This document shows, in pieces, positions 5,841 through 51,129 of a DNA stretch of 64,000 nucleotides. The notes beneath the pieces were generated by a model. That model did not search any database and was not told the DNA's origin. It was given only the letters and a program-made list of their open reading frames with translations. The stretch lies in NCBI GenBank assembly GCA_038064075.1, contig JBBTTU010000004.1:647-64646 (forward strand), read 5' to 3'. This DNA is from Patescibacteria group bacterium. Its GTDB lineage: Bacteria > Patescibacteriota > Minisyncoccia > HO2-45-28. Position 1 is the first letter of the stretch; each line of letters starts with the position of its first letter. The translations under genes and the position numbers were made by a program.

Positions 5841-5882
5841 TTGACTTGACATTTGACATATATTAAGTTAGATTTCTATTAA
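5841..5882 (+). promoter_or_regulatory. Putative sigma-70-like promoter with direct TTGACT/TTGACA repeats upstream of the 5888 gene.
   Basis: TTGACT is at 5841-5846, TTGACA at 5853-5858, and TATTAA at 5877-5882 with an 18-nt spacer. The -10 lies only ~5 nt before the ATG, so any transcript would be leaderless or the promoter assignment is wrong. Confidence 0.25.
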
Positions 5883-5887
5883 GTGAT

Positions 5888-6916
5888 ATGGGCAATAATT
5901 TTAATAATTTTGAAGAAGTTTCCAAAAGTTTATTAAAAGAATTTTCAGGGCGCGCTAAAGACGTTATTGAACGTCGTTTTGGCATTGGTTCAAAGTCAAA
6001 AAGACAAACCTTGGAAGCAATCGGCCAGTTTTACAAAATTACCCGCGAGCGAGTCCGCCAGATTGAAGACGCGGCTTTAAACAAGCTCCGTTTGAGCCAA
6101 TCTTTTGATTCATTAACTTCTCCTTTGTTTGAAATTTTCCAGAAAGAGCTTGAAAAAAGAGGCGGAGTTTGCCGCGAAGACCATTTTATTGCCGGGTTTG
6201 CGCATGGCGAACGGGATAAAAATTATGCCCTCTTTTTCCTTTTTTTAGGCAGTCCGTTTTCGCGATTAAGCGCCGACGGGTCATTTTACAGCCGATGGAC
6301 GATTAATAAAGAGAATGCTTCCAAAGTTGAAAGAGCCGTCGCCAGTTTTGCTGAAAGTTTGGGACAAGAGCCGTTAACTGAAAACGAAATACTTGACCGT
6401 TTCAACCGGCATGTTGCCGCGAGTCTCAACCATACATTAGAAAAATCAGCTCTGCTTTCGTGGCTCGGCATTTCCAAAGAGATTACCGTTAATCCTCTGG
6501 GTGAATGGGGACTCAATTCTTCGCTTCTGGTCCGTCCGCGCGGCATGCGGGATTTTGCCTATCTTGTTTTGAAAAAGCACGGATCGCCCCTCCATTTTCG
6601 CGAGGTTGCCAAAAAAATTGAAGATCTGGCCGGCCGGCGTTCCCATGTCCAGACGGTCCATAACGAACTTATCAAAGACGATCGCTTTATTCTGGTCGGC
6701 CGCGGACTTTACGCTCTTTCAGGCTGGGGCTATCAGCCCGGAACCATAAAAGACATAATCACCAATATTTTGAAAAATCACGGTCCGCTTTCAAAAGTCG
6801 AGCTGGTTCAAAAAGCTCTTCAGGAAAGGCATGTTAAAGAAAACACGGTGCTGATCAATCTTCAAAATAAAACTCATTTTAAGCGTCTTGACGACGGCCT
6901 CTATCATTTGGCCTGA
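5888..6916 (+). CDS. DNA-binding regulatory protein with a sigma-70 region-4 HTH N-terminal domain and a HARE-HTH-like C-terminal domain.
   Basis: 'AKDVIERRFGIGSKSKRQTLEAIGQFYKITRERVRQIEDAALNKLR' matches RpoD region 4.2. C-terminal 'VLKKHGSPLHFREVAKKIEDL' and 'ILKNHGPLSKVELVQKAL' resemble the HARE-HTH of the RNAP delta subunit. Confidence 0.55.
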   Translation: MGNNFNNFEEVSKSLLKEFSGRAKDVIERRFGIGSKSKRQTLEAIGQFYKITRERVRQIEDAALNKLRLSQSFDSLTSPLFEIFQKELEKRGGVCREDHFIAGFAHGERDKNYALFFLFLGSPFSRLSADGSFYSRWTINKENASKVERAVASFAESLGQEPLTENEILDRFNRHVAASLNHTLEKSALLSWLGISKEITVNPLGEWGLNSSLLVRPRGMRDFAYLVLKKHGSPLHFREVAKKIEDLAGRRSHVQTVHNELIKDDRFILVGRGLYALSGWGYQPGTIKDIITNILKNHGPLSKVELVQKALQERHVKENTVLINLQNKTHFKRLDDGLYHLA

Positions 6917-7002: not shown

Positions 7003-8340
7003 ATGCCGCAATTTAAGGGTTTTTCTTTAACCGTTTTATGGAATTTTATTGCGCCGGCGCTTAATTTTATCGCCGATCTTTGGTGGTTGTGGCTTTTCAT
7101 CATTTCGGCGATACTGGCAAAAAATCTTTGGCAACATTTGCGGATTTCGCGTTTTAAAAACGACAACCGCTGGGTTCTTTTGGAAATTTTAATCCCGCGC
7201 GAAATCCGGAAATCGCCAAAGGCGATGGAGCAGATTTTAAATCAAATTTACAGCTTGAGAAATTCTCCCGAAAACTTCGTTGAAAAATATTTTGAGGGCG
7301 AAGTGACTCTTTGGTGGAGTCTGGAAGTCGCCAGTTTCGGCGGCGAGGTTCATTTTTTTATCCGGACGCCGGAAAAGTATAAAAATATCATAGAATCCAA
7401 CATTTATGCCAATTACAAAGACGCCGAAGTAGTTGAAGTTCAGGATTATGTCCTGCGTCTGCCGGAACGAACAACCGATTTATACAAAATGGGAATGGAT
7501 CTTTTCGGTTTGGAGCTGACTCTGGGGCGCGAGAGCGCCTATCCCATCAGAACCTATCCCCAGTTTGAAGCCATGGAAGAAGAAAAGGCTCTTGATCCGA
7601 TATCGGGCCTTATTGAAGTTTTAAGCAAACTGAAAAAAGAAGAACAGGTTTGGCTTCAGATTTTGATCAAGCCGGCCGATCCTTTGTGGAAAGAAAAGGG
7701 TTATAAATTAGTCAAAAAATTGCAGGAAAAAACCTTTTCCAAAGTTAGTATTTCAGAAGGAAAGTCGCTGGCTATCGGCCGGACGACTCCCGGTGAGGAA
7801 GACATCATAAAAAATATTGAATATAAACTGGCAAAGGCGGCTTTTGAAACTGTTATCCGTTATGTTTATTTCGCTCCGCGGTCTATTTTTAACAAACAAT
7901 TGCCTTACAGAGGAGTTCGGGGCTGTTTTGCCCAGTATTCGGCTCAGAACATGAATTATTTTGTTCCGAACATTGCGGTCCGAACCATGGTTTGGTGGGT
8001 TAAATTTCCGTTTTTCTTTTCCAAAAAAAGAGAAGAAGGGAGGAAGCAGCGCGTCTATCAGAATTATCGCTTGCGGCGAATGCCGGAAGAAATCGCGATC
8101 GGCAAAGTTTTAAACTCCCAGTTTTTTTATTTTGACAACAAGTCAAAGCCGGCAATATTTTCAAGCGAAGAGATCGCGACATTTTATCATTTGCCTTCTT
8201 TCCTGATTTTAACCGCGCCTTTCATCAAGCGGGTTGAAGCCAAACGGATGGGTCCGCCGGCCGGATTGCCTATTTTCGGCGAAGAGGAAGAAATTCCCGG
8301 GATTAAAATGCCGGAGGAACGCAAATCAGCCAAAAAATGA
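7003..8340 (+). CDS. Hypothetical membrane-anchored protein with two N-terminal TM helices and a ~370-aa soluble domain. It is the first gene of the T4CP-like ATPase module.
   Basis: N-terminal hydrophobic helices ('FSLTVLWNFIAPALNFIADLWWLWLFIISAILA'). I recognise no family. A possible extended -10 (TGGCATAAT, 6987-6995) lies upstream. The stop overlaps a downstream ATG in an ATGA arrangement. Confidence 0.5.
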   Translation: MPQFKGFSLTVLWNFIAPALNFIADLWWLWLFIISAILAKNLWQHLRISRFKNDNRWVLLEILIPREIRKSPKAMEQILNQIYSLRNSPENFVEKYFEGEVTLWWSLEVASFGGEVHFFIRTPEKYKNIIESNIYANYKDAEVVEVQDYVLRLPERTTDLYKMGMDLFGLELTLGRESAYPIRTYPQFEAMEEEKALDPISGLIEVLSKLKKEEQVWLQILIKPADPLWKEKGYKLVKKLQEKTFSKVSISEGKSLAIGRTTPGEEDIIKNIEYKLAKAAFETVIRYVYFAPRSIFNKQLPYRGVRGCFAQYSAQNMNYFVPNIAVRTMVWWVKFPFFFSKKREEGRKQRVYQNYRLRRMPEEIAIGKVLNSQFFYFDNKSKPAIFSSEEIATFYHLPSFLILTAPFIKRVEAKRMGPPAGLPIFGEEEEIPGIKMPEERKSAKK

Positions 8341-8359
8341 ATCAAGCCGCAAGTTCCAA

Positions 8360-8485
8360 GTGCCAAAATTGCCGGCAAAACTTCACGAAAACAATTCCTG
8401 CCCCAATGAATTTGAAACAACCTATTCACCGGACCGCAAAGAAATTGTTTATTGCGAACAGTGTTATCAGAGCGAGATTTTGTGA
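8360..8485 (+). CDS. Possible small zinc-ribbon ORF, or a frameshifted C-terminal extension of the upstream membrane protein.
   Basis: The +1 frame relative to the 7003 gene encodes 'CPNEFETTYSPDRKEIVYCEQC', homologous to 'CWICKKTASVPFKPDGQRPVYCSEC' at the C-terminus of the 10621 ATPase (shared PD..(R/K)x(I/P)VYCx(E/Q)C). The start codon is uncertain (GTG at 8360). The alternative frame also encodes a 58-aa CxxC ORF starting at 8337. Confidence 0.25.
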   Translation: MPKLPAKLHENNSCPNEFETTYSPDRKEIVYCEQCYQSEIL

Positions 8486-8531
8486 GAAACTGTGTTGGTT
8501 TAATTTATTTTAAATTGTTATTCTTAAAATA

Positions 8532-9098
8532 ATGCCCATAAATTTTAACGCGATTGGAAGCATGCTCGGGCCTTTTGGTTTTTTGGCAGATATTGGCTTC
8601 TGGCAAAATTTTTATGTAGTTTTGCGCCAGATTTTGATTGCGGGCGCCGGGGCGCTTTTTATTCTTTCAGTTTGGCTTTTGATTAAAATCTGGTCGCTCA
8701 AACTCCGTTTTTATATTTATGAAGGTTACAGGGCTTATCGCACTCCCGGCAGAGAAACCACTTTTGAAGAAGAACAAAGGCTTGCCAGCCGCAGGAAATG
8801 GGACGCTATCATCAAAAAAGTTGAATCGCGGGGAGCGGCCGGTTTCGGCATGGCTGTTATTGAAGCTGATATTTTAACCGAAGAAATAATGGGCCGGATG
8901 GGTTTTATCGGCAAAAATCTGGCGGAACGCCTGCGTTCGCTTGCGCCGGGCGAACTGGAAAGTGCCAATGACCTTTGGTCCGCCCACAAATTAAGAAATA
9001 AAATAGCCCACGAGCAGGAATTTCAGCCGTCCAAGGAAGAAACGGTTGAGGCCTTGGCGGCTTACAAAAAAGCCTTGCAAGATTTGGGCGCGATATAA
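8532..9098 (+). CDS. Small membrane protein with a C-terminal alpha-helical domain carrying a HEPN-like Rx4H motif.
   Basis: Two N-terminal hydrophobic helices. The C-terminal 'SAHKLRNKIAHEQEF' matches the HEPN/HepT(DUF86) Rx4HxY motif, with Q in place of Y. Confidence 0.45.
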   Translation: MPINFNAIGSMLGPFGFLADIGFWQNFYVVLRQILIAGAGALFILSVWLLIKIWSLKLRFYIYEGYRAYRTPGRETTFEEEQRLASRRKWDAIIKKVESRGAAGFGMAVIEADILTEEIMGRMGFIGKNLAERLRSLAPGELESANDLWSAHKLRNKIAHEQEFQPSKEETVEALAAYKKALQDLGAI

Positions 9099-9117
9099 AG
9101 ACATTAGAAAACTTAAC

Positions 9118-10587
9118 ATGCTAAGAGAAGGAAAAATTCAAATAATCAAATATGCTCCGCCTCCGCCGGAATTGCCGGTCTATAAATATGTTGATCCGCG
9201 CGAAACCGTCTTTTTCGGCCGGACCAATTATGTCGCCGGACTTGAAGAGAAAAGATTTATTTTCGGCATTAAAAGAAAAGACCGCCGGCGCCATATGTAT
9301 GTCGTCGGCAAAAGCGGCGTCGGAAAAAGCAAACTATTGGAAATGATGATCCGTCAGGATATCCGCTACGGCCACGGGCTTTGCTTGATTGATCCTCACG
9401 GCGACGTGATTGAGGAGATTTTGAAGTTCATTCCCGAAGAGCGCGCTCGCGATACGGTTATCATTGATCCTTCGGATATTGACTGGCCGGTTTCTTTTAA
9501 TCCTTTGCAAAATATCAATCCCGAACTGAAGCACCAAGTCGCCCAAGGTTTGATTGAAGTGATGGAAAAGCAGTTCGGCGCGAACTGGACGCCTCGTTTG
9601 GAACATGTTTTTCGTTTTACGGTGCTGGCGCTTCTGGATTTTCCGATGGCCACCATGCGCGGAATGATTTCAATGCTGACTGACCGGAGATACCGTCAGA
9701 AAGTCGTGGAGTTCATCGGCGATGAGATGGTCAAACGTTTCTGGGCGATAGAATTTGCCGACTGGTCGGAAAAATTTGACACCGAGGCCATTATTCCTTT
9801 GGTCAACAAGCTCGGCCAGTTTTTATCCAATCCTTATTTGCGCCATATTTTCGGCCAACGCGAAAATAAAATTGATTTGGAACATATAATGAACAGCCGT
9901 AAAATACTCCTGATCAACCTTTCCAAAGGGAAACTGGGCGAAGAAAATTCAAGCTTTTTCGGTTCAATATTCATCACCAAGATCAAGCAGGCCGGAATGG
10001 CCCGGGCGGCCGTGGCCGAGAGCGAACGCAAAGATTTTTATCTTTATGTTGATGAATTTCATAATTTGGTCACAACCACTTTTGAAAATTTATTTTCCGA
10101 AGCCAGAAAGTACGGCCTTAATATGATTGTGGCCCACCAGTATATGGGCCAGCTTTTGCCGCGGGTGCATGATACGGTTTTGGGCAATGTCGGCACCATT
10201 GTCGTTTTCAGGGTCGGAGGAGACGACGCCGCCAAACTGGAGAGCGAAATGACGCCGGTTTTTAAAGCCAAAGACATGATTAATCTCGGCATGCAGGAAT
10301 TCTACGTAAAAATGACCATTGACGGCGACACTTCCGATCCTTTCTCGGCTGAAACGCTCAAAGTCTTGCCAACGGCGCACCAATCGTTTAAAGAAGAAAT
10401 TATTGATTTTTGCCGCAAAAATTACGCCGCTCAAGCCCAAGAAGTGAAACGAAAAATTACTGAAGAGGAAACCGAACTTTTGGGCCTTGCTCCCGAAGAA
10501 GAAAAAAAAGAAGAAGCGTCTTCGGCGGTTTCTCAAGCGCCCGGCGAAAAATCGGAAAATTCTCAAAACTCCGAACCTCTTGTCTGA
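9118..10587 (+). CDS. Soluble VirD4/TraG/TrwB-type (type IV coupling-protein-like, FtsK/HerA superfamily) P-loop ATPase. NCBI-style name: type IV secretion system DNA-binding domain protein.
   Basis: Walker A 'HMYVVGKSGVGKSKLL', 'GLCLIDPHGDV', Walker B 'DFYLYVDEFHNL' and Q-motif 'IVAHQYMGQL' occur in canonical T4CP order. There is no TM anchor. The C-terminus is acidic. The start is chosen at the internal ATG at 9118 (MLREGK) to avoid overlapping the upstream gene. Confidence 0.7.
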   Translation: MLREGKIQIIKYAPPPPELPVYKYVDPRETVFFGRTNYVAGLEEKRFIFGIKRKDRRRHMYVVGKSGVGKSKLLEMMIRQDIRYGHGLCLIDPHGDVIEEILKFIPEERARDTVIIDPSDIDWPVSFNPLQNINPELKHQVAQGLIEVMEKQFGANWTPRLEHVFRFTVLALLDFPMATMRGMISMLTDRRYRQKVVEFIGDEMVKRFWAIEFADWSEKFDTEAIIPLVNKLGQFLSNPYLRHIFGQRENKIDLEHIMNSRKILLINLSKGKLGEENSSFFGSIFITKIKQAGMARAAVAESERKDFYLYVDEFHNLVTTTFENLFSEARKYGLNMIVAHQYMGQLLPRVHDTVLGNVGTIVVFRVGGDDAAKLESEMTPVFKAKDMINLGMQEFYVKMTIDGDTSDPFSAETLKVLPTAHQSFKEEIIDFCRKNYAAQAQEVKRKITEEETELLGLAPEEEKKEEASSAVSQAPGEKSENSQNSEPLV

Positions 10588-10620
10588 AATAAAATTTGCA
10601 GACATAATTTAAATAATCCC

Positions 10621-12564
10621 ATGGCCATTCAAAAAGAAAGAGTTTATTTTGCCAGAACAAATTTTAGAGGTCAGAATAAAATTTTCGGCATTAAATTGCC
10701 GGATCGCCGGCAGCATATGTATGTTGTCGGGAAAACCGGCACCGGCAAAACCAACCTGATCAAAAATATAGCCATTCAGGATATAAACTCCGGCCGGGGC
10801 CTCTGCGTTGTTGATCCTCACGGCGAGCTAGTTGAAGAACTTTTGGAAAAAATTCCGAAAGAACGCTCCAAAGACGTGATTTATTTCAATCCGGCCGACT
10901 CGGAACATCCTCTGGGTTTCAACGTCTTGGAAGTTCCCGATAAAAAATACAAGCATTTGATTGCGCAGGGCCTGATCGGAATTTTTACCAAAATCTGGGC
11001 CAATGTCTGGTCGGCCCGGATGGAGTATATTTTAAATAACTGCATTTTGGCCTTGATTGAAACGCCGGGCACCACGCTCTTGGGCATTCAGCGCATTTTG
11101 ACCGACAAAGATTACCGCCAGCGGATTTTAGCCAATGTAACCGACCCGGTCGTGCGCGCTTTTTGGATGAATGAATATGAAGTCTGGCAGGATCGCTTCC
11201 GCAACGAAGCCATTGTTCCGATTCAAAATAAAGTCGGCCAGTTCGTCGCGACATCTTTGATCCGAAACATTGTCGGCCAGGCCAAATCAAGCTTTGAAGT
11301 TTTTGAGTTGATGAACGAGGGCAAAATTCTTCTGGTCAATATTTCCAAAGGCCGGATTGGCGAGGAAAATTCAATGCTTTTGGGAGCCATGCTTATCACT
11401 AAAATTCAGCTGGCGGCCATGGAACGGGTCCGCATCCCCGAAAATGAAAGGCGCGATTTTTATCTTTATGTTGACGAGTTCCAGAATTTCGCCACCGAAT
11501 CGTTTGCTTCCATTCTTTCCGAAGCCAGAAAATACCGGCTTAATCTGATTATTTCGCATCAATACACCGGCCAGCTGATTAGCCAGACGACAACGACGAT
11601 CCGCGACGCCGTTTTCGGCAATGTCGGCACGATGATTTTTTTCAGAGTCGGAGCGACCGACGCCGAGTTTCTGGAAAAAGAAATCACGCCCGAATTCGTC
11701 ATAGACGACCTCGTCAATCTGCCCAATTACAATATTTATCTCAAATTAATGGTTGACGGCATATCAACCCGGCCTTTTTCGGCCGTTACCATACCGCCTT
11801 TGGCCACGACCGCCGATATGGCCGATCCGAAAATTATCGTTGATAATTCCCGAAAGCAATATGCCCGATCGGCAAACAAGGTTGAAGGAGATATCAAGCG
11901 CTGGAGTTCTTCTTTGCCGGGAACGACTGAAGCCGAAGAAGAATTTTTCACCGAAGGCGGATCCGCCTATGGCGGAAAAGTTAAAACCGGCGACAAATTT
12001 GAAAGTCCGTGCTGGATTTGCAAAAAAACCGCGTCAGTTCCTTTCAAGCCCGACGGCCAAAGGCCGGTCTATTGCTCGGAGTGTTTGAAAAAGATTGAAG
12101 CCGGCCAACTGCGGCCTTTGCGTCCGCTGCCGACGGCCGGAAAAGAGCGCGAAGAATTCGGCGGAGAACTCGGTGAATTGGGCATTGAGTTTAATTTGCC
12201 TCAAAATAAGGTAAAGACATTCTCAAAGCCGGGCTTCAAAGCTCCGCATCCGGAATTTTCGCCGAAAGCCCGGCCCGCGCCCGGAAAAATTATGCCGAAT
12301 ATCAGAGAGGGCGAATTGGTGGTCAAGGATGTTAAGCCAAAACGCGCGCTTTCTTTGCAAGATTTGAAGCCGCGGGCAGAAAAATCAAAACCAAAAGAAT
12401 CTAATTTGGATGAATTGCGCCGGGTTCTGAAAGAATCGCTTGCCAAAGAAGAAAAACCGATGGCCGAAACTCAAAAAAATCAGAATGCGGCGCCGTCTTC
12501 ACAAAAGGAGCCGTCTTCCAAATCAGGCGTGCTTAAACCCGGCGAGTCAATAAAATTTGAATAA
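10621..12564 (+). CDS. Paralogous soluble VirD4/TraG-type P-loop ATPase with a C-terminal CxxC...CxxC zinc ribbon and a long K/P/E-rich disordered tail.
   Basis: 'HMYVVGKTGTGKTNLI', 'GLCVVDPHGELV', 'DFYLYVDEFQNF', 'IISHQYTGQLI'. The core is collinear with the 9118 protein. Zinc ribbon 'CWICKKTASVPFKPDGQRPVYCSEC'. The tail is rich in K, P and E. Confidence 0.7.
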   Translation: MAIQKERVYFARTNFRGQNKIFGIKLPDRRQHMYVVGKTGTGKTNLIKNIAIQDINSGRGLCVVDPHGELVEELLEKIPKERSKDVIYFNPADSEHPLGFNVLEVPDKKYKHLIAQGLIGIFTKIWANVWSARMEYILNNCILALIETPGTTLLGIQRILTDKDYRQRILANVTDPVVRAFWMNEYEVWQDRFRNEAIVPIQNKVGQFVATSLIRNIVGQAKSSFEVFELMNEGKILLVNISKGRIGEENSMLLGAMLITKIQLAAMERVRIPENERRDFYLYVDEFQNFATESFASILSEARKYRLNLIISHQYTGQLISQTTTTIRDAVFGNVGTMIFFRVGATDAEFLEKEITPEFVIDDLVNLPNYNIYLKLMVDGISTRPFSAVTIPPLATTADMADPKIIVDNSRKQYARSANKVEGDIKRWSSSLPGTTEAEEEFFTEGGSAYGGKVKTGDKFESPCWICKKTASVPFKPDGQRPVYCSECLKKIEAGQLRPLRPLPTAGKEREEFGGELGELGIEFNLPQNKVKTFSKPGFKAPHPEFSPKARPAPGKIMPNIREGELVVKDVKPKRALSLQDLKPRAEKSKPKESNLDELRRVLKESLAKEEKPMAETQKNQNAAPSSQKEPSSKSGVLKPGESIKFE

Positions 12565-13706
12565 AGCTCAAATGTTTTTTGGAGTTGTTTTTCTTTTGAA
12601 AATTCTTTAAGCACTTTTTGGCGCAAGTTTTGAGCAAGTATCCGGCCTAACTCCGGATCTTTTTTTAATCTTAAAACTGCTTCAGTCAGTTTTTGGGGAT
12701 CGGCCGGCGGTATTAAAAGTCCGGTTTTTCCGTCTTCTATGATTTCAGGGATTCCGCCGACAGAGCTGGCAATAACCGGGATTCCGGCCAGACCCGCTTC
12801 AAGCACCGCGTAGGGCAGTCCTTCTTTCAGCGACGGAAACACGAATACGTCAAAAGCTTTGAGATAAGCCGCCGCCGGAAAAAGATCTCTTACTAAAATC
12901 ACGTGTCGGCCGGTTTTTTCATTTTCAATTTGTCGGCGAGTTTTTTGCCAGCCGCTGCCCCAAGCCGCGATTACGGTTTTTATTTTTTCGTCTTTTTTAG
13001 CCAAGACGCCGGCGGCCGGTACCAGATATTCGTAGCCTTTATTTTTGACAAATTCGCCGACGGTGCCGACAATAAAATCATCGGTTTCAAACCGCGCATT
13101 CGGCATTTTTTTCCGGATTTCGTTTTTAGCAAGAAACAAGATTTCGTTTTCGGAGATTCCGTTATGGATGGTCAATAATTTTTCAGGCCGGGCCAGTCCG
13201 GTTTGGACGGCAATTTGGCGGTCAAAGTTTGAAACGCAGATGACTTGATCGTAAAACCATAAAGTTATTTTGGAAAGAATCCGGATGAAGAAAATTTGCC
13301 AGCGCGGCCTATCTTCCAGAAAACTCCAGCCGTGGACCGTAAATATTGTCCGCAGTTTTTTTCGGGAAAGCATTTTATAAATAAACGCGGCCGGGCCGGC
13401 AATGCCGGCGGCTTGGGGGCTTGAAGAATGAAGAATATCGGGACGGAAAGAAAAAAGAATTTTAAGCGTTTTTAAAAAAACCGCAAATGCCCCCAAAGGC
13501 CCCATTTCGCGCTTAAGTCCGCCAAGCGAAATAAAAGGTATTGACGCTTCTTGCAGGCGGCCGGCCAGAGGTCCGCGGCCGCCACCGGCCACCGCGGCGT
13601 CGTATCCCTTCTTTTGGGCGCAAGCGGCGAGGTCATAGACATGTTTTCCGGCTCCTCCCCAGACCGACTTGGTGATAAGGTATAAAATTTTAGCGCGATT
13701 GACCAT
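12480..13706 (-). CDS. Glycosyltransferase family 4 (GT-B, Glycos_transf_1).
   Basis: 'FVFPSLKEGLPYAVLEAGLAGIPVIASSVGGIPEIIEDGKTGLL' is the GT4 EX7E region. Its 3' end overlaps the convergent 10621 gene by 85 nt. Confidence 0.75.
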   Translation of the reverse strand: MVNRAKILYLITKSVWGGAGKHVYDLAACAQKKGYDAAVAGGGRGPLAGRLQEASIPFISLGGLKREMGPLGAFAVFLKTLKILFSFRPDILHSSSPQAAGIAGPAAFIYKMLSRKKLRTIFTVHGWSFLEDRPRWQIFFIRILSKITLWFYDQVICVSNFDRQIAVQTGLARPEKLLTIHNGISENEILFLAKNEIRKKMPNARFETDDFIVGTVGEFVKNKGYEYLVPAAGVLAKKDEKIKTVIAAWGSGWQKTRRQIENEKTGRHVILVRDLFPAAAYLKAFDVFVFPSLKEGLPYAVLEAGLAGIPVIASSVGGIPEIIEDGKTGLLIPPADPQKLTEAVLRLKKDPELGRILAQNLRQKVLKEFSKEKQLQKTFELYSNFIDSPGLSTPDLEDGSFCEDGAAF

Positions 13707-13753: not shown

Positions 13754-14927
13754 AATGAATGAACTTGCCCCAAAGCCAAAGATTTTTATTTTTTCAACGG
13801 CCTATTTGCCGATGATCGGCGGCGCGGAGCTGGCAATTAAAGAAATAACTGATCGCCTCGCCGATGATTTTGATTTTGTTTTGCTTACGACGAGACTAAA
13901 GCGTTCGCTCCCCAAATGCGAGCGAATTGGCAGAGTCCAGATCAGGCGTTTTGGCTCGGGGCTGCTGCCGTATTTGGACAAAGCGCTTTCTCCGTTTTTG
14001 GCCGCTTATTTTGTTTATAAATTTATGAAAAAACATCCGGTGCATCTTTTTTGGAGCATGATGGTGACCTTTACCAGCGGCGCGCCGTTTATCTTGAAGT
14101 TTTTGGGGCTGGATAAAAATGTGCCGATACTCCTTAGCTTGCAGGAAGGCGATACTGAAGATCATCTGCGATCAGCTAATTTGGGTTTGACTGGCCTGGC
14201 TTGGAAATTGGCCGCGCCGCGCGCGACTAAAGTCCAGACAATCAGTTTTTATCTGAAAAAACTTGCGGTTAAATTCGGCGTGAATCTCGCGGAAACCGAA
14301 GTTGTTCCCAACGGGGTTGATCTTGAAAATTTTTCGCGCCGTTTGCAGCCGGATCGCGTCAAAGAACTTCGCATCCGTCTTGGCCTTCCGACCGGAAAGC
14401 CGATTATAATTACTGCTTCGCGCCTTGTCCGCAAAAACGGGATTGATATTTTGATTAAGTCCCTGGCCGATATTCCGGAAGCCCGTCTTTTAATCGCCGG
14501 CGCCGGCCCTCAAGAAAAAGAACTGCGGAATCTTGCCCGAAAATTAAAAAAAGAAAAAATGATCCATTGGTTGGGAAGCGTCAATCACAAGAAGCTGGCC
14601 GAATTTTTGGCAATTTCCCATGTTTTTGCCAGACCCTCGCGCTCCGAAGGGCTGGGTTCGGCTTTTTTGGAAGCAATGGCTTCGGGTTTGGCGGTGGTGG
14701 CAACCAATGTCGGCGGCATTCCGGATTTTTTAATCCATCAAAAAACCGGCCTTTTTTGCAAGACGGAAGATCCGGAGGATCTTGCTTTTCAGATCAGGCT
14801 TTTACTCTATAATCGCGAGCTTCGCGAAAACATCGCTTCGGCCGGTCAAAAATTGGTTTTTCAAAATTATTCCTGGGATAAAGTCGCGGGATCAATGCGC
14901 CAGATTTTTCTCCGCCTTTTAAAATGA
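13754..14927 (+). CDS. Glycosyltransferase family 4.
   Basis: 'ARPSRSEGLGSAFLEAMASGLAVVATNVGGIPDFLIHQKTGLF'. The ATG at 13754 is preferred over the TTG at 13737. Confidence 0.75.
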
Positions 14928-15017
14928 ACCCCGTTAGAAGTTCAACCGAGGTTAGTATTATCACTTTTTTAGAAAGCGAATTCGTTCTCGCAATGTTATT
15001 ACCGACAATTATTTTAT

Positions 15018-16163
15018 ATGAAAACTTCTAACGGGATGAAAATTTTAATTGCCACCCCTCTTTTTCCGCCGGATATAGGAGGACCGGCTACTTACAGCAA
15101 GGCGCTTTCGGAAGAATTGTCCAAGCGCGGGATAAGCGTTGATGTTCTGTCTTTCGGGGTTGTTCGCGGATTGCCCAAAATTATTCGCCATTTGGCCTAT
15201 TTCTGGAAAGTTTTTTGGAAGAGCCGGAAAGCCGATTTAATTTTCTCCCAGGATCCGGCATCAGTCGGTTTTCCTGCTTGCCTTGCCGCGCTGCTTTTAA
15301 GGAAGCGTTTCGCGCTGAAAATTGTGGGAGATTACGCTTGGGAGCAGGGAATGAATCGTTTTGGAGTCAAGGATTTGCTTGATAATTTTTTGGAAAAAAA
15401 ATACGGCCGGCCGGTTGAATTTTTGCGCCGGATTGAAAAATTTGTCGCAATCAGGGCCGATATTATTATTGTTCCCAGCCGCTATTTAAAAAGCGTTGTT
15501 GAAAAATGGGGCGTTGATTCTAAAAAAATAAATGTAATTTATAACGCGGTTCATATTCCGGAAATTTTTCAGAGTAAAGAGGAAATAAGAAAAAATCTCG
15601 GACTTTCCGGAAAAATTTTGGTGAGTATCGGCCGGCTTGTTCCGTGGAAAGGATTTGGAATGTTGATTGAACTTATGCCTGAAATCTCAAAAAAATATCC
15701 GGCCGCTAAACTGCTGATCATCGGTTCGGGGCCCGAAGAGGATGAGCTAAAAGCTATAAGCTATAAGCCTTCGTCCCGAACTCAGGCCGAGGGGTTAAAA
15801 GCTGGCGTAAAATTTTTAGGCGGTTTATCTCATGAACTGGTTTTGAAATATTTGAAAGCCGCCGACATTTTTTTGCTTAATACCGGCTATGAGGGTTTTT
15901 CGCACCAAATTTTGGAAGCCATGGCTTCGGGCGCGCCGGTTATAAGCACGCCGGCAGGAGGCAACAGAGAAATTCTGGAAGACCGCAAAAATACGTTGGT
16001 CGCCGCATATAATGACAGGAACGTTTGGCTCCGAGCCATTTTAGAACTTTTGAGCGATCAGAATCTGGCCCAAAATTTATCCAAAAACGCCCGCCAAGGT
16101 GTTTTAAAATTCGCCGGTCAAAATATGATTGAAGAAACAATTAAAATTTTGCAGTCGTTATGA
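15018..16163 (+). CDS. Glycosyltransferase family 4.
   Basis: 'NTGYEGFSHQILEAMASGAPVISTPAGGNREIL' GT4 motif. N-terminal 'ILIATPLFPPDIGGPATY'. Confidence 0.75.
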   Translation: MKTSNGMKILIATPLFPPDIGGPATYSKALSEELSKRGISVDVLSFGVVRGLPKIIRHLAYFWKVFWKSRKADLIFSQDPASVGFPACLAALLLRKRFALKIVGDYAWEQGMNRFGVKDLLDNFLEKKYGRPVEFLRRIEKFVAIRADIIIVPSRYLKSVVEKWGVDSKKINVIYNAVHIPEIFQSKEEIRKNLGLSGKILVSIGRLVPWKGFGMLIELMPEISKKYPAAKLLIIGSGPEEDELKAISYKPSSRTQAEGLKAGVKFLGGLSHELVLKYLKAADIFLLNTGYEGFSHQILEAMASGAPVISTPAGGNREILEDRKNTLVAAYNDRNVWLRAILELLSDQNLAQNLSKNARQGVLKFAGQNMIEETIKILQSL

Positions 16164-41037: not shown

Positions 41038-41880
41038 ATGTTATCACAAATTCAGCCGCTGCTGAAATGCCCTGATTGTTCGGCTGATTTTGACGCGGTT
41101 CAAAACGGCCTTCGCTGCAGGGCATGCCGCCGTTTTTATCATAAGAAAAACGATTCTTTAATGTTTGTTTCGCCGGCGCCGGAGGCTGGCGAGAACGCGT
41201 CTTTCATGCCGAATCTTAAAAAATTTCTTAAAAAACATCCTAAACTTTTTTTTGCTCTTTATTACACTCTCGGAGTTTTTGTCGGCAAAAGCGCGAAAAC
41301 GGCCGTCAAAATTATGCCGAAAGGCTCCGTGATTTTAAATATCGCTTCGGGGCCGAAAATCATAAGGGACGATGTCATTAATGTCGATATTGAGCCTTAT
41401 GCCGGCGTTGCGGTTTGCGCCGATATTATGAATTTGCCGTTTAAAGACGAAGCGGCCGACGCGGTCATTTGCGAATCTTCTTTTGAACATTTCAAAAATC
41501 CCGAAAAGGCTCTTTTGGAAATGAAGCGGGTGCTTAAAAACGGCGGATTGATTTATGCTTCGCTGCCTTTTATTTGCGGATTTCACGCCTCGCCCGATGA
41601 TTATTTCCGCTGGACCGAGGCCGGAATTGCGGAATTTTTTAAAGAATTTGAAACCAAAGAATTAGCCGTCGGCTGGGGACCGACTTACGCTTTAACCGCG
41701 ATACTTCGCGAGTGGCTGGCGCTGGTCTTGTCGTTTAACTCGGTTTTTCTGCACGAGTTTCTGGCGATTGTCTTTACCGTAATTTTCGCGCCGTTTAATT
41801 TTTTGGATCACATTTTGGCGCGATATCATTCGGCCAAAAATATATCATTCGGTTTTTATTATATCGGGATTAAAAAATGA
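41038..41880 (+). CDS. Class I SAM-dependent methyltransferase with an N-terminal CxxC...CxxC zinc ribbon (Trm112-like).
   Basis: 'CPDCSADFDAVQNGLRCRACRRFY', 'VINVDIEPYAGVAVCADIMNLPF', 'VICESSFEHFKNPEKALLEMKRVLKNGG'. Confidence 0.55.
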   Translation: MLSQIQPLLKCPDCSADFDAVQNGLRCRACRRFYHKKNDSLMFVSPAPEAGENASFMPNLKKFLKKHPKLFFALYYTLGVFVGKSAKTAVKIMPKGSVILNIASGPKIIRDDVINVDIEPYAGVAVCADIMNLPFKDEAADAVICESSFEHFKNPEKALLEMKRVLKNGGLIYASLPFICGFHASPDDYFRWTEAGIAEFFKEFETKELAVGWGPTYALTAILREWLALVLSFNSVFLHEFLAIVFTVIFAPFNFLDHILARYHSAKNISFGFYYIGIKK

Positions 41881-43553
41881 TTTTATATTTGAGAGAGAAT
41901 ATTGCGCGAAAGTCGTGGTTTAAATGGGGGATACTGGCGCTGGCGATGCTGCCTTCACTGACATATATGGCGATTCGGATCAGCCGCGATGAAAGTTGGG
42001 ACAATTGGGCTTTCGGTTCGGCGCAGACCATGCTTACCGTCCGGTATTGGGCGCGGGACGGATTCGTTAAACATAAATTTCTTTTTTTGCCGTCCGGATA
42101 TCATCCGGACATCCAAGTTCTGGATCGGCCCGAATTACGGTTTTTGGCGGACGGAATTTCCGGCTATGGTTTGATCGGCAGGCGGCTCTATTATACTCAT
42201 TATCCTCCTTTTTACCTTATGCCTTACGGTTTTCTTGCCAAATTCGGCGCAGAAAGCCGATTCTGGTTCAGAGCGCTGGCGTTTTTTTTCTCGTTTAGTT
42301 CAGCGGTTTTTATGGCCGGTTTTATTTATTTGATTACGAAACGGAATAAATGGGCGACTTTATCGGCGATTTTATATTATACGACTTCAACAACCTTTTT
42401 GGGCTATGCCGATTCTCTGGCCAATATGCCGGTGGATGATTTTTTTAAATGGCTTATATTGTTTTTAAGCGTTTACGGAATTTCCAAAATTGAGGTCGGG
42501 GAGCTCAAAAAATGGCTTGATAAAACAATATGGATTTTGTTTTTCGTTCTGGCCATAAGTTCTTATGACTCCGTTTTTTTCGTTTTTTTCTGGCTTTGCG
42601 CCTTAAATTACATCACGACCCAAAAAATCAACTTCAAAAAATACTTATTCTGGGCTTTGGCTCCGTTATCCGCTTTTATTCTGCAAATGGGACAGAATAT
42701 CTGGTATTTGGGTTTAAAAGACGCCGCGCTTGATGTTTACGGGACTTTTCTTTTCAGATTCGGCGAGACGCCGCAAGTCGGCGCTGGATTAAATAATCTT
42801 CCGCCCGTAATAAAAAATATTTTTCTGTCTCTTTCCGCTATCGGCTATTTTTCCGATCTTAAAACGAGATTTGCTCTTCCGCTCATTATTTTATTGGCTT
42901 ATTTATTTTTTAAGAATAAATTTGCTCACAAGGACATTTTGCGTTTTATTACAACGTTGTTTGTTGCCGGATTGATTTATCTTTTTATTCTTCCGTCCAC
43001 GGCGGCTTTCGGATATCAAGGCAGGCAAGCTGCGCCGGCGCTTCTTTTGTTGTTCTCTTTAGCTTTATGGCAGACAATTATTTCTTTTAAAGAAAAGAAT
43101 TTTGGAAAAGATAAACTGTTGGTCGCGTGCTGTCTTGGCATTTTTTTGGCGGCGCATTTTTACAACCTTTTTGCCTACCTTAAAGAATGGCCGCATGATG
43201 TAATTGCAAAAGAAAAAATAGAATATTTGCGCCAGCTTGCGGGCATAACAGACCAGCGAACAATAATTATCGGCACTGCGAATGCCGTTGCGGCCGGTTC
43301 GGAACGTTTTTTGGAAGAATATTATTCCGATCGCCTTATACTTGCTTTTAAAGATACGGACACATTGCTGGAATATATGGATAAATTGCGTTCAGTTATG
43401 TCCGGAGGAGTTAATTTTTTGATCGCGGCAACCGACGCGGAATACCAAGCAGTTTTAATGAAATTGAAATCCATGGAAAAATATACTATGATACCGCGGA
43501 CTGTTGATATGCCGCCGCAAGGTCTGGCGTTAATAAGCGTAACGCATAAATAA
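41877..43553 (+). CDS. Polytopic membrane protein, candidate novel GT-C-type glycosyltransferase. Paralog of the gene at 44522-46171.
   Basis: About 12 TM helices followed by a ~130-aa soluble C-terminus. The conserved acidic motif after TM1, 'RDESWDNWAFGSAQTMLTVRYWARDGF', is nearly identical in the paralog. I recognise no family. Confidence 0.45.
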   Translation: MILYLRENIARKSWFKWGILALAMLPSLTYMAIRISRDESWDNWAFGSAQTMLTVRYWARDGFVKHKFLFLPSGYHPDIQVLDRPELRFLADGISGYGLIGRRLYYTHYPPFYLMPYGFLAKFGAESRFWFRALAFFFSFSSAVFMAGFIYLITKRNKWATLSAILYYTTSTTFLGYADSLANMPVDDFFKWLILFLSVYGISKIEVGELKKWLDKTIWILFFVLAISSYDSVFFVFFWLCALNYITTQKINFKKYLFWALAPLSAFILQMGQNIWYLGLKDAALDVYGTFLFRFGETPQVGAGLNNLPPVIKNIFLSLSAIGYFSDLKTRFALPLIILLAYLFFKNKFAHKDILRFITTLFVAGLIYLFILPSTAAFGYQGRQAAPALLLLFSLALWQTIISFKEKNFGKDKLLVACCLGIFLAAHFYNLFAYLKEWPHDVIAKEKIEYLRQLAGITDQRTIIIGTANAVAAGSERFLEEYYSDRLILAFKDTDTLLEYMDKLRSVMSGGVNFLIAATDAEYQAVLMKLKSMEKYTMIPRTVDMPPQGLALISVTHK

Positions 43554-44521: not shown

Positions 44522-46171
44522 ATGGAAATTTTACGAAATAAAAAGAATCTGCGGTTTGGATTTTTGGCATTTTTAATTATTTTGCCTTCTTTGATTTTTT
44601 TAGTTTCGCGATCCGCTCAGATTGAAAGTTGGGACAACTGGAATTGGGGTTCGGCCCAGACAATGCTTACTGTCCGCTACTGGGCAAGAGACGGCTTTTT
44701 AAAGCACAGGATGTTTTTTTTGCTTAACGGTTATCATCCTGAAATAGAAATTTTAGATAAACCGGAATTCCGTTTTCTGACAGGCAACACGCTGACGGGC
44801 GGCCTTGTCGGCAACAGGCTTTATTACAATCATTATCCGTCCAATTACGTCATTCCTTACGGTTTGCTTGGAAAATTGGGCGTTGAGAATAGATTTTGGT
44901 TCAGAATGTTATCAGTTGTTTTTTCTTTCGGCTCGGTTTTATTTTTAGCCGGTTTTATCTATATTCTGACTAATTACAATCGCTGGATTGCCTTGATTGC
45001 CGTTTTTTATTACATCACTTCATCCAGTTTCATCAGTTATGCCGATTCGCTGAATAACACTCCTTTGGATGATTTTTTTAAGCTCTTGATTTTATTTTTG
45101 AGCGCGTATTATTGGAAAATAGCCGACAGCGCGGCGTCAAAACGGCGGTTGAAATCGGCAATCTGGATTTTGTATTTTATTTTGGCCTCCGTTTCTCTTG
45201 ACTCAACTTTTTTCGTATTTTTCTGGCTCGGCGCTTTCAATTTCATGGAAACCAAAAAATTCAATTTTAAAGAATATTTTTACTGGGCAGCGGCCCCGCT
45301 GTCTGCTTTTATTATCCAATTTACGCAGAATACTTTTTATTTGGGTTTTAAAAACGCAATGCTTGATTTATGGGGCGATTTTTTATACCGTTTCAGCGAG
45401 GCGCCGGCGGCTTTAGATAATCTGCCTCCGATAATAAAAAGTATTTCCGCGGCGTTTTCAACAGCCGGATATTTTTCAGATATGCGCACCAGATTCGCAA
45501 TCCCGTTGATTTTATTGTTGGTTTATTTCCTTTTTAAGGAAAAAGACTCTAAACATCTTTTGCGCTACGGCGCGATTTTGGCGGTCAGCGGTTCAATCCA
45601 TCCTTTTATTTTTCCGGTGGCCGGCACGTTTGGATATCAAGGAAGACAAATGGCTCCGGCATTGCTTTTAATTTTCGGGCTTGCCGCCTGGAAATTATTG
45701 AAAAAAATAAAAGAAAAACAATTTAGTTTACATTTTTTCGCTTTATTGTTTTGTGCGATCGCGTTTTGGGCGGCGCATTTTTCGGCCAGTTTCAGTTACA
45801 CCAGGGAGTGGCCGAACAATGTTTTTCCCAAAGAGGATATTGTTTTTCTCCAAAATTTGAATAAAATATCCGATTCTTCAACCATGATTTTAAGAATTAA
45901 ACCCGATATTGCCAAAGTAGACCGCTCTCTTGAGGATTTTTACGCCGATCGTCTCATAATTTCTTTTAAAAATATTGATGTTTTGCTGGAATATATGGAT
46001 AGAATTTATTCCACCATACCCGGAAAAGTCAATTTTCTGTTGGTTTTGCCCGGTCAGGAATATCAGCCGGCTTTGGAGAAGTTGAAAAATATGGATGATT
46101 TCAGCGCTGCAGACGCGCCAGTCGTTCCTTTGATTGATGATTTTAAAATCATTAAAGTAATTCATAAATGA
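44522..46171 (+). CDS. Polytopic membrane protein, candidate novel GT-C-type glycosyltransferase. Paralog of the gene at 41877-43553.
   Basis: 'QIESWDNWNWGSAQTMLTVRYWARDGFLKHRMFFL...RLYYNHYPSNYVIPYGLLGKLGVENRFWFR' is collinear with the 41877 protein. Confidence 0.45.
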   Translation: MEILRNKKNLRFGFLAFLIILPSLIFLVSRSAQIESWDNWNWGSAQTMLTVRYWARDGFLKHRMFFLLNGYHPEIEILDKPEFRFLTGNTLTGGLVGNRLYYNHYPSNYVIPYGLLGKLGVENRFWFRMLSVVFSFGSVLFLAGFIYILTNYNRWIALIAVFYYITSSSFISYADSLNNTPLDDFFKLLILFLSAYYWKIADSAASKRRLKSAIWILYFILASVSLDSTFFVFFWLGAFNFMETKKFNFKEYFYWAAAPLSAFIIQFTQNTFYLGFKNAMLDLWGDFLYRFSEAPAALDNLPPIIKSISAAFSTAGYFSDMRTRFAIPLILLLVYFLFKEKDSKHLLRYGAILAVSGSIHPFIFPVAGTFGYQGRQMAPALLLIFGLAAWKLLKKIKEKQFSLHFFALLFCAIAFWAAHFSASFSYTREWPNNVFPKEDIVFLQNLNKISDSSTMILRIKPDIAKVDRSLEDFYADRLIISFKNIDVLLEYMDRIYSTIPGKVNFLLVLPGQEYQPALEKLKNMDDFSAADAPVVPLIDDFKIIKVIHK

Positions 46172-48271: not shown

Positions 48272-48679
48272 ATGATCACTCCGGAAAAAGAAGCGGAAAT
48301 AATAGCTCGGTATTTGATCGGCGCAAAGTTAAGCCGCGCCAATCAAAATCTTTTTGATCAAGCGATTAAAACTCATAATATAAAAATGAATCAGAAGGAT
48401 CAGCGAATCTGGAATTTGGTTTTAAATCATCCGGCATTATTGCCGTATATTGACGCCGGATTTGCTCTTATCCAGCCGACAAACTCAATTAGGAAAAAAA
48501 TTTATATTATGTTCGCTGTTCTTGAAACTGAACCGTCTTATTCGGAATTTTTCTTATATAATAAAAAGAGAATTCCATGGGTTATAAATGCCGGCTGGCT
48601 GGGTTTAAGGGCTTTATTTCGGGCGATTGTCGGATTTTTTATCTTAAAATCATTGATTTTATATGAAAAGATATCATGA
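48272..48679 (+). CDS. Hypothetical small protein.
   Basis: ORF only. I recognise no motifs. The ATG at 48272 is preferred. Confidence 0.3.
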   Translation: MITPEKEAEIIARYLIGAKLSRANQNLFDQAIKTHNIKMNQKDQRIWNLVLNHPALLPYIDAGFALIQPTNSIRKKIYIMFAVLETEPSYSEFFLYNKKRIPWVINAGWLGLRALFRAIVGFFILKSLILYEKIS

Positions 48680-50294: not shown

Positions 50295-51129
50295 AAATCA
50301 AACCATTATAATAACCGGCAGTTCCGGTTTTATCGGTTCCCGCTTGGTCGGCCATTTTTTAAAATTAGGCTTTAACGTCCGCACTTTTCAAAGAGCAAAG
50401 TGCGATTACAACAATCCGATGGCGTCTTGTTTCCATTTTGAGTTGAGCGAAGTAAAAGATATGGGGTTTCAGGGAGCCGATTACTTGGTGCACTCCGCTT
50501 ATCAGCCGGTTATCGGAAGAAACCGCGCCGCCGATGTTAATCTGGAAGGCGCCAAAAAAATTATATCTTTATGCCGGAAATACGGCGTGAAAATGGTTTT
50601 TCTTTCAACCTTGTCCGCTCATTCGGAAGCGGAATCCAATTACGGGCGGCAAAAGTTATTAATGGAAAGTTTATTTGATCCGCGTCAAGATTTAATATTG
50701 AAACCGGGGCTGGTATTGGGCGAAGGAGGGGGGCTTTTCGGAAGAATAGCTTCCGTATTAAAAACTAAAAAAATTATTCCCCTTGTCGGGGGAGGTAAAC
50801 AGCGCGTTCAGACCATAGAGCTTGATGATTTATGCCGGATAATAGAATTGGGAATTAAAAAAAATATTTGCGGCAGTTTTATGGTTGCGACTCCGGACGC
50901 GATTACCCTGAAAGAACTTTATCTTAATATAGCGAAAAAAGCAGGATCAAAACCATTGTTTATTCCGGTTCCGACCATCCTTGCTTATTTTATTTTGAGA
51001 TTTGCCGAGATATCGGGAATACGGCTTCCAATAACATCCGAAAACGTTCTTGGCCTCAAACATTTAAAAGTTTTCAATACCGCGCCTGATTTGAGGCGAT
51101 TCGGGGCGGTTTTAAAAAATTACAAATGA
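50287..51129 (+). CDS. NAD-dependent epimerase/dehydratase family (SDR) protein.
   Basis: 'IIITGSSGFIGSRLVGHFLKLGFNVRTF' Rossmann motif. 280 aa. Confidence 0.55.
   Translation: MDKNQTIIITGSSGFIGSRLVGHFLKLGFNVRTFQRAKCDYNNPMASCFHFELSEVKDMGFQGADYLVHSAYQPVIGRNRAADVNLEGAKKIISLCRKYGVKMVFLSTLSAHSEAESNYGRQKLLMESLFDPRQDLILKPGLVLGEGGGLFGRIASVLKTKKIIPLVGGGKQRVQTIELDDLCRIIELGIKKNICGSFMVATPDAITLKELYLNIAKKAGSKPLFIPVPTILAYFILRFAEISGIRLPITSENVLGLKHLKVFNTAPDLRRFGAVLKNYK

Follow-up and report, generated by a model that had tools for sequence, protein, structure and literature searches.

A chromosomal gene cluster of Patescibacteria that combines a predicted VirB4-like membrane anchor with motor ATPases of the type IV coupling protein type

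Introduction

Type IV coupling proteins (T4CPs) of the VirD4 kind are the closest described relatives of the ATPases discussed here, and their homologues were surveyed across the Patescibacteria in 2025 by Quinonero-Coronel et al., who counted 5713 of them in 2918 of 3035 genomes (96%) and found VirB4 in 2417 (~80%) (PMC12102498). According to that survey, 148 of the 5713 genes lie near virB4 and the rest apart from it, the VirB4-N-terminal-like TrsD proteins of Patescibacteria are mostly encoded adjacent to virB4, and the T4CP homologue of Ca. S. epibionticum is non-essential whereas its type IV secretion system (T4SS) genes are essential; exaptation of the T4CP homologues “cannot be ruled out” in the words of its authors (PMC12102498). 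In Ca. S. epibionticum, the cluster of essential T4SS genes has no recognisable coupling protein according to Wang et al. 2023 (PMC10633639), and the Saccharibacterium TM7x has a separately annotated ftsK (PMC10768705). Stray T4CP-like genes far from virB4 are therefore already known (PMC12102498). Here we report the analysis of a 64,000-nucleotide stretch of a Patescibacteria genome (assembly GCA_038064075.1, contig JBBTTU010000004.1, positions 647 to 64,646, forward strand; hereafter the window), in which two such genes, C and D, form a cluster with genes S, A and B and with the remnant of a further gene, Z. What this locus adds are the partner proteins, a predicted VirB4-like anchor, a predicted HEPN component and a fused anchor-motor paralog, of which no description was found in the searched literature.

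Results and discussion

In our preferred interpretation, to which we give roughly even odds, S-A-(Z remnant)-B-C-D is a vertically inherited chromosomal cluster of Patescibacteria whose products form a membrane-docked ATPase translocation complex, with nucleic acid or nucleoprotein as its most likely cargo. This interpretation is built on the domain identities of the encoded proteins, on a paralog in which anchor and motor are fused, on a conserved gene order with tight spacing and on a housekeeping gene context. All elements of the cluster lie on the plus strand, and the four open reading frames (ORFs) that had been delimited in an earlier reading of the window made from its letters alone (the original prediction), here A to D, are all present.

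C (9118-10587, 489 aa counted from the ATG) and D (10621-12564, 647 aa) are P-loop motor ATPases without a transmembrane (TM) helix, C being the common paralog and D a second one with a C-terminal extension; the two are 44% identical over 434 aa. The T4CP motif series previously ascribed to both was borne out, with the Walker A motifs HMYVVGKSGVGKS in C and HMYVVGKTGTGKT in D, followed by IDPHGD and VDPHGE, the Walker B motifs FYLYVDEFHN and FYLYVDEFQN, and AHQYMGQL and SHQYTGQL, respectively. The Pfam model TrwB_AAD_bind was matched by C with 42.2 bits (6.6e-11) and by D with 57.2 bits (1.8e-15), against a gathering cut-off of 20.5, and the gathering scores of DUF87 and TraG-D_C were exceeded as well. 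That both proteins are soluble also held, the highest Kyte-Doolittle 19-mer value being 1.39 for C and 1.21 for D and no window exceeding 1.6.

A family profile was assembled from 21 C and D sequences and aligned by hhalign to the two candidate ATPase families of T4SSs. TrwB was matched with a probability of 96.7% (E 3.8e-10), the 269 aligned columns extending from Walker A past Walker B; for VirB4/TrwK the probability was 38%, and the 89 aligned columns were confined to the surroundings of Walker A. Since the former match far exceeds the latter, the motor of C and D is, on its sequence, of the T4CP (TrwB/VirD4) type. Searches of PDB sequences agreed, the profile retrieving TrwB (6.8e-8), then DotL (0.003) and then HerA, and D on its own finding TrwB as its best solved structure (9e-7). 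Among VirB4-type Pfam models, AAA_10 stayed below threshold (E 0.022) and CagE_TrbE_VirB gave no match. The NCBIfam T4CP equivalogs scored far under their cut-offs (about 50 bits against 250-650), the best being SXT_TraD with 55.5 bits (cut-off 366) and conju_CD1115 with 51.6 bits (cut-off 250). Coupling proteins carry an all-alpha domain inserted between the two Walker motifs; in C and D some 240 residues lie in this interval, which the alignment to TrwB spans at the level of sequence.

D carries in addition a treble-clef zinc ribbon, CxxC-x17-CxxC, at aa 460-491 (11998-12093; zf_Tbcl_2 9.2e-11, TIGR04272 7.1e-11), from which a disordered K/P/E-rich tail runs to the stop codon, as had been predicted. 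The ribbon was found in 16 of 24 D-type proteins and in none of 59 C-type ones. Walker A and Walker B are kept in all 24 D-type proteins and were recognised in 54 and 48, respectively, of the 59 C-type ORFs. The 3′ end of D overlaps that of a convergent, minus-strand GT4 glycosyltransferase gene (12480-13706) by 85 nt (12480-12564), and the overlap is annotated likewise in an independent assembly (L090; L numbers designate loci compared in this work). In PADLOC, both ATPases also matched mad8, a model for the MADS defence system (C 4e-15, D 1e-13), about as well as the T4CP models, and mad8 may itself be a T4CP-type ATPase.

Protein A (7003-8340, 445 aa) belongs to the DUF8128 family. The Pfam entry PF26449 is precomputed on a 100% identical database protein (P0001) and on nearly all homologs, and the assignment rests on this annotation, our Pfam scan of the window's own A having given no DUF8128 match. 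The closest named relatives are from Candidatus Niyogibacteria, and the term DUF8128 was not found in the literature searched. An AlphaFold2 model of A (pLDDT 82.8) comprises an N-terminal helical hairpin (aa 2-54) followed by an alpha/beta domain, and Kyte-Doolittle analysis gave one clearly hydrophobic window only, at about residues 15-40. The earlier description of A and B as membrane proteins thus stands, while a two-helix membrane topology for A is uncertain, an N-terminal helix and a hairpin both being compatible with these results. When the model was submitted to Foldseek, the top 11 matches were all TrwK (VirB4) chains, and no stand-alone P-loop ATPase chain (TrwB, FtsK, HerA or the VirB4 C-terminal domain) was among the matches. 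The search gives no aligned residue ranges on TrwK; because of the missing stand-alone ATPase chains, we infer that it is the non-ATPase, N-terminal part of VirB4 that is matched and that the cytoplasmic domain of A is predicted to carry a fold like that of the VirB4 N-terminal domain. Matches of A to Abi_2 (Pfam, E 0.017) and AbiD (PADLOC, E 0.0084) were weak and were taken as chance.

The two parts also occur in a single chain. In the product of L080:12938-14869, a DUF8128-like domain is joined to one TM helix and to a T4CP-type motor, and the family of about 790-aa fusions to which it belongs comprises more than 120 clusters (at 90% identity) among the matches listed, 63-100% identical to the L080 protein. 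These are annotated with PF26449 and DUF87 throughout and with TrwB_AAD_bind and T4SS-DNA_transf in most cases, and all those with a named source are from Patescibacteria. The fused gene (e.g. L086:10001-12394 and L087:10001-12406) lies between MreB-MreC-PBP2-L21 and PGK genes, with no T4SS neighbours. It retains 63-70% identity across many clusters and lineages and shows, as judged from its sequence, strong purifying selection. By sequence comparison the fusion is a third, highly conserved paralog family of Patescibacteria, of which A together with C or D in the window is the split counterpart. The fusion of DUF8128 to a motor in the paralog is evidence for a physical complex of A with the motor, and the architecture as a whole, a membrane-proximal VirB4-like N-terminal domain plus a motor, is VirB4-like despite the T4CP-type motor. 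The predicted fold of A and this fusion are the most informative features of the locus, and neither was seen in the original prediction. A protein of 119-137 aa is encoded just ahead of the fused gene; it was considered as a homolog of B and rejected (probability 0.1%).

The cluster had been called an orphan, which the comparison with other genomes contradicts. A scan of one genome per species placed DUF8128 relatives in at least 583 species genomes, a DUF8128 profile of 40 members retrieved 3155 clusters at 50% identity, and the 80 listed loci were all from Patescibacteria or from unclassified “bacterium” metagenome-assembled genomes. Conservation of the gene neighbourhood had been proposed as the check on the module, its absence from relatives counting against it; when every ORF of 82 non-redundant loci was compared by phmmer with the proteins of the window, the arrangement proved to recur across these Patescibacteria loci, the same synteny being present in at least 80 species. 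S immediately precedes A in 71 of the 78 loci that extend far enough to hold it, and B is present in 61 of 75. Of 63 loci, 61 have a T4CP-type ATPase gene on the same strand no more than 7 kb after A, in 56 cases no more than 1.2 kb after it. The genes are tightly spaced, with median gaps of 3 nt between A and B and 9 nt between B and the ATPase, which suggests co-translation. Forty loci reach far enough downstream to be informative on the motors: C occurs without D in 23 of them, together with D in 12, and D without C in 5, so that a D-type paralog occurs in 17; full-size Z genes were found in 23. Because of these recurrence counts the core is S-A-B-motor, with D and Z as frequent accessories. 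A five-gene module, as first described, does not fit this picture: its ribbon ORF is a pseudogene, D is found in fewer than half of the informative loci, and S (5888-6916), upstream of the genes then considered, belongs to the cluster. SecD/SecF genes lie just upstream of S in 57 of the 82 loci (e.g. L004:4179-6647 and L089:5200-7446), their place being taken in the window by MurJ and TsaC. VirB1-like enzymes accompany type IV systems, and in one Giovannonibacteria locus a lytic transglycosylase (SLT domain) gene (L001:12068-12976) lies 0.6 kb downstream of the ATPase; it does not recur in other loci.

Protein B (8532-9098, 188 aa) is a single-pass membrane protein with a predicted C-terminal HEPN domain. 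A hydrophobic segment at about aa 26-58 corresponds to the TM helix, and in the AlphaFold2 model (pLDDT 89.8) it is followed by a helical bundle with the four-helix up-and-down topology of the HEPN fold. The HEPN-like Rx4H motif noticed earlier, R155-N-K-I-A-H160 (codons at 8994-9011), proved to be invariant: across 17 members of the family the invariant residues are D113, G127, W149, A151, H152, R155, N156, I158, A159 and H160, and RNxxxH is also present in a Giovannonibacteria homolog only 34% identical to B. The family evolves fast, the homolog search having returned 30 matches only. Sub-threshold HEPN_Swt1 matches were obtained for 8 of the 17 members (best E 0.0052), and others matched HEPN_RiboL-PSP, Csm6_HEPN and Ribonuc_2-5A, likewise below threshold; comparison of the B-family profile with PDB sequences returned only noise (sodium channels and ribosomal protein S20). 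The HEPN assignment is thereby supported at the level of predicted fold and motif. Because basic residues follow the TM helix (positive-inside rule), the HEPN domain is probably cytoplasmic.

The product of S is a DNA-binding protein with sigma-70 region 4 at aa 16-68 (Pfam Sigma70_r4, 2e-11) and a HARE-HTH domain at aa 220-280 (2.5e-10). A promoter-like site lies upstream of it at 5846-5874; such sites are not above chance, our promoter and terminator scan having given counts no higher than the shuffled expectation.

Between A and B, a zinc ribbon encoded out of frame (in the frame 8234-8485) had been counted as a gene of the module. We found instead the remnant of a gene of a family, Z, of Cys-rich proteins of about 565-610 aa that are encoded beside the ATPases in related loci, with up to 5 copies per locus. 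The frame opening at the ATG at 8337 encodes within its first 16 codons MNQAASSKCQNCRQNF, which corresponds to positions 2-16 of the Z N-terminal profile (E 0.0012) and is the top match of that profile in the whole six-frame translation of the window. The last ~36 codons of another frame, ending in HENNSCPNEFETTYSPDRKEIVYCEQCYQSEIL and the stop codon, correspond to residues 540-575 of a Z protein 575 aa long (E 1e-13), and the two pieces abut at about nt 8384. From this sequence, 8337-8485 is a pseudogene, the out-of-frame stump left by an internal deletion of ~1.6 kb. The stretch is identical in three assemblies, which rules out an assembly error, and a simple or programmed frameshift was ruled out likewise because the pieces match the two ends of the 575-aa protein and not adjacent parts. 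In the Niyogibacteria locus L006 an intact gene for a 564-aa Z protein occupies the exact A-B interval; no other Z gene was found in the window.

Z proteins start with M..CQNCKK.F.IE...PPPT.CP.CR and end with CPN.FET.YAPDR.EIVYCE.CYQ.EV, and they carry treble-clef zinc ribbons at both termini with numerous Cys motifs in between. The C-terminal ribbon is of the same type as that of D, and searches of the family against Pfam, NCBIfam and PDB gave only weak treble-clef ribbon matches. Altogether 88 copies were found in 36 of the 82 loci, all on the strand of the cluster (e.g. L004:9325-11082, 11094-12875 and 14416-16143; L006:11339-13033; L001:14729-16429).

On this basis we propose the following mechanism. 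The N-terminal helix or hairpin of A would hold this protein in the cytoplasmic membrane, exposing the domain with the VirB4 N-terminal fold to the cytoplasm, and the TM-less motors C and/or D, presumably as hexamers, would dock on it, so that A and motor would rebuild a VirB4-like architecture from two polypeptides with a motor of the T4CP type. B would set a dimerisable HEPN domain (ribonuclease type, RNxxxH) at the same face of the membrane, S would act as a double helix-turn-helix DNA-binding protein, and treble-clef zinc ribbons would be added by D and, in other genomes, by Z paralogs. The complex could thereby feed or translocate a substrate at the membrane at the expense of ATP, at least partly independently of the VirB4-based T4SS, for which the published counts of T4CP-like genes, more widespread than VirB4 and seldom near it, and the non-essential homologue of Ca. 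S. epibionticum speak (PMC12102498). Nucleic acid or nucleoprotein is suggested as cargo because the partners of the motor are a HEPN domain, a sigma region 4/HARE-HTH protein and zinc ribbons.

Several results weigh against this proposal. The DUF8128 profile shows no signal against the TrwK sequence in hhalign (probability 3.7%), for which reason the link of A to VirB4 is structural only. No Pfam HEPN model is matched by B at threshold, leaving predicted fold and motif as the basis of its assignment, and HEPN domains can be non-catalytic. The cluster encodes no channel-forming polytopic protein; the conduit would have to come from elsewhere, or the one or two TM helices of A and B would have to suffice. 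S could simply regulate the operon, zinc ribbons can bind proteins, and the nature of the cargo is pure inference. Taken strictly, the core is reduced to S, A and one motor, B being undetected in 14 of 75 loci and D absent from most. Finally, the presence of VirB4 in ~80% of genomes alongside the cluster is compatible with a T4SS-coupled role.

Such a role is the first alternative to be weighed and a serious one, which we regard as possible, if doubtful. C and D would then be true coupling proteins of a patescibacterial VirB4-based T4SS encoded elsewhere, A would replace the missing membrane domain and dock the motors on VirB4, VirB3 and VirB6, and an effector protein or DNA would be delivered to the host bacterium. 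In the R388 T4SS structure the N-terminal part of VirB4 contacts VirB3 and VirB8, and it is this part whose fold is predicted for A; the motor is of the T4CP type by sequence. The frequent separation of T4CP genes from virB4 and the presence of VirB4 in most genomes (PMC12102498) are in keeping with such a role, as is an essential T4SS in Ca. S. epibionticum that lacks a recognisable coupling protein (PMC10633639). The same survey speaks against it in that T4CP-like genes occur in more genomes than VirB4 does (2918 against 2417), few of them near virB4, and that the homologue, unlike the T4SS genes, is dispensable in Ca. S. epibionticum (PMC12102498). It would also be unusual for a coupling protein to have 2-3 paralogs in each genome, including one encoded between MreBCD and PGK.

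Our own searches for conjugation genes used the VirB2-11 proteins, relaxase and integrase of R388 (NC_028464) as phmmer queries, together with a Pfam scan covering 26 of the 63 window ORFs of at least 120 aa. In the window the phmmer search retrieved the two ATPases only, matched by TrwB, and neither search showed linkage to relaxase/Dtr genes or to a VirB4 mating pore. The earlier claim that the 64-kb window holds no T4SS part thus agrees with the R388 search and is partly tested by the Pfam scan. Across 85 loci, the phmmer search found no relaxase, integrase or VirB mating-pore homolog. No T4SS gene recurs in the 82 loci, which also speaks against a T4SS-coupled role.

A housekeeping role in the envelope or the cell cycle is possible but unlikely. 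It would have the motors pump chromosomal DNA in the manner of FtsK, or extract or insert membrane proteins such as pilins in the manner of VirB4, tied to Sec export and cell-wall growth. VirB4 acts on pilin, and its fold is shared by the predicted anchor; the near-universal, vertically conserved cluster neighbours SecD/SecF, FtsW and MurJ genes, and the fused paralog lies beside MreB-MreC-PBP2. Such synteny may, however, be mere ancestral gene order, and the HEPN and helix-turn-helix partners are left unexplained. The T4CP homologue is, moreover, non-essential in Ca. S. epibionticum (PMC12102498), and replacement of FtsK by the cluster motors was set aside because TM7x has its own annotated ftsK (PMC10768705).

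We consider very unlikely the anti-phage or abortive-infection system that the original prediction had offered as one option. In such a system the ATPases would detect or move invading nucleic acid, and the HEPN ribonuclease tethered to the membrane would kill the cell or degrade the invader. Combinations of HEPN domains and NTPases are common in defence systems, B has the predicted HEPN fold with a conserved RNxxxH, and in PADLOC C and D match mad8 and, weakly and at superfamily level, HerA. The mad8 scores are, however, no better than those of T4CP models, which points to shared superfamily membership. A (sub-threshold AbiD only) and B match no PADLOC model at threshold, S matches only the sigma region 4 part of MzaA, and no described PADLOC defence system has all its components matched by the cluster. 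Defence islands are patchy and mobile, whereas here the same tightly coupled order persists in hundreds of species beside SecDF and other housekeeping genes, which fits defence poorly.

That the cluster is what is left of an integrated conjugative element stripped of relaxase and mating-pore genes is hardly credible. Although the motors are of the T4CP type and the Z gene of the window is a deletion remnant, searches of the window gave no relaxase, integrase, tRNA gene or VirB homolog, the R388 search of the 85 loci was likewise negative, all D-type proteins retain both Walker motifs, which were also recognised in most C-type ones, the GC content of the cluster in a composition profile (0.435-0.473) is similar to that of its neighbours (0.45-0.48), the synteny extends over at least 80 species and the fused paralog appears to be under strong purifying selection. 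The earlier statement that the cluster is not a conjugative element is upheld in this way, an integrative conjugative or mobilisable element being effectively excluded by the lack of relaxase, integrase and tRNA genes and by the conserved synteny.

In the window, the cluster is flanked by genes for a tetratricopeptide repeat protein, MurJ, a Sua5/YrdC protein (TsaC family) and GT4 glycosyltransferases, in agreement with the housekeeping and glycan genes first reported there. Beyond it lie GT4 glycosyltransferases, asparagine synthases and a polysaccharide flippase. Within this glycan-biosynthesis region are four plus-strand ORFs of 540-600 aa (41877-43553, 44522-46171, 48663-50294 and 51126-52907) and a minus-strand ORF of 847 aa (60303-62846), none of which has a Pfam match at E 1e-5.

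Conclusions

Patescibacteria, which account for much of the diversity of bacteria, live on other cells and are unable to synthesise nucleotides, amino acids or lipids; the exchange of macromolecules between them and their hosts is a standing question. The T4CP homologues of the 2025 survey, whose role was left open there, are now given a concrete anatomy. If the proposed architecture is correct, the combination of a membrane helix, a VirB4-like N-terminal domain and a T4CP-like motor would bear on the origin of coupling proteins, as a candidate for an evolutionary intermediate that connects the two families of type IV secretion ATPases. A bolder extension, which we think rather unlikely, would make the cluster an autonomous, phylum-wide nucleic-acid trafficking machine, for example one importing host RNA or DNA with HEPN processing at the cytoplasmic exit to feed nucleotide-auxotrophic cells, its architecture being a surviving VirB4-VirD4 intermediate. 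The cargo, the need for a T4SS and the nuclease activity of the HEPN domain are directly testable in genetically tractable Saccharibacteria.

Among known systems, the T4CPs (VirD4, TrwB of R388, TraD and DotL) share with C and D the order of Walker A, helical insert region (putative in C and D), Walker B and HQ-motif. C and D differ in having no N-terminal TM domain in the same polypeptide, the helix being supplied by A or, in the fused paralog, in cis. The cluster motors are furthermore chromosomal, occur in hundreds of Patescibacteria species with 2-3 paralogs per genome and have no relaxase or mating-pore genes nearby. They are also paired with or fused to a domain resembling the VirB4 N-terminal domain, which to our knowledge the canonical coupling protein TrwB lacks.

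VirB4 (TrwK) shares its N-terminal domain fold with A, as far as the model predicts, while the motor of C and D is closer to that of T4CPs. In VirB4, N-terminal domain and motor form one chain, encoded beside VirB3, VirB6 and VirB8, whereas the window splits these parts into A and C/D; A brings a membrane helix of its own, while VirB4 depends on VirB3. TrsD, the stand-alone VirB4 N-terminal homolog of pGO1-type systems, is set apart by published context only, Patescibacteria TrsD being mostly encoded beside virB4 and DUF8128 not.

EccC of the type VII (ESX) systems is a membrane-anchored protein with three ATPase domains; the structural similarity of EccE-EccC to A is much weaker than that of VirB4, and no other ESX component is present. 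From the HEPN ribonucleases (Swt1-like proteins, Csm6, MNT-HEPN toxins and the sacsin HEPN), B differs by its N-terminal TM tether and by having neither an MNT antitoxin nor a CARF partner, and it is instead a conserved core gene beside a T4CP-type motor.

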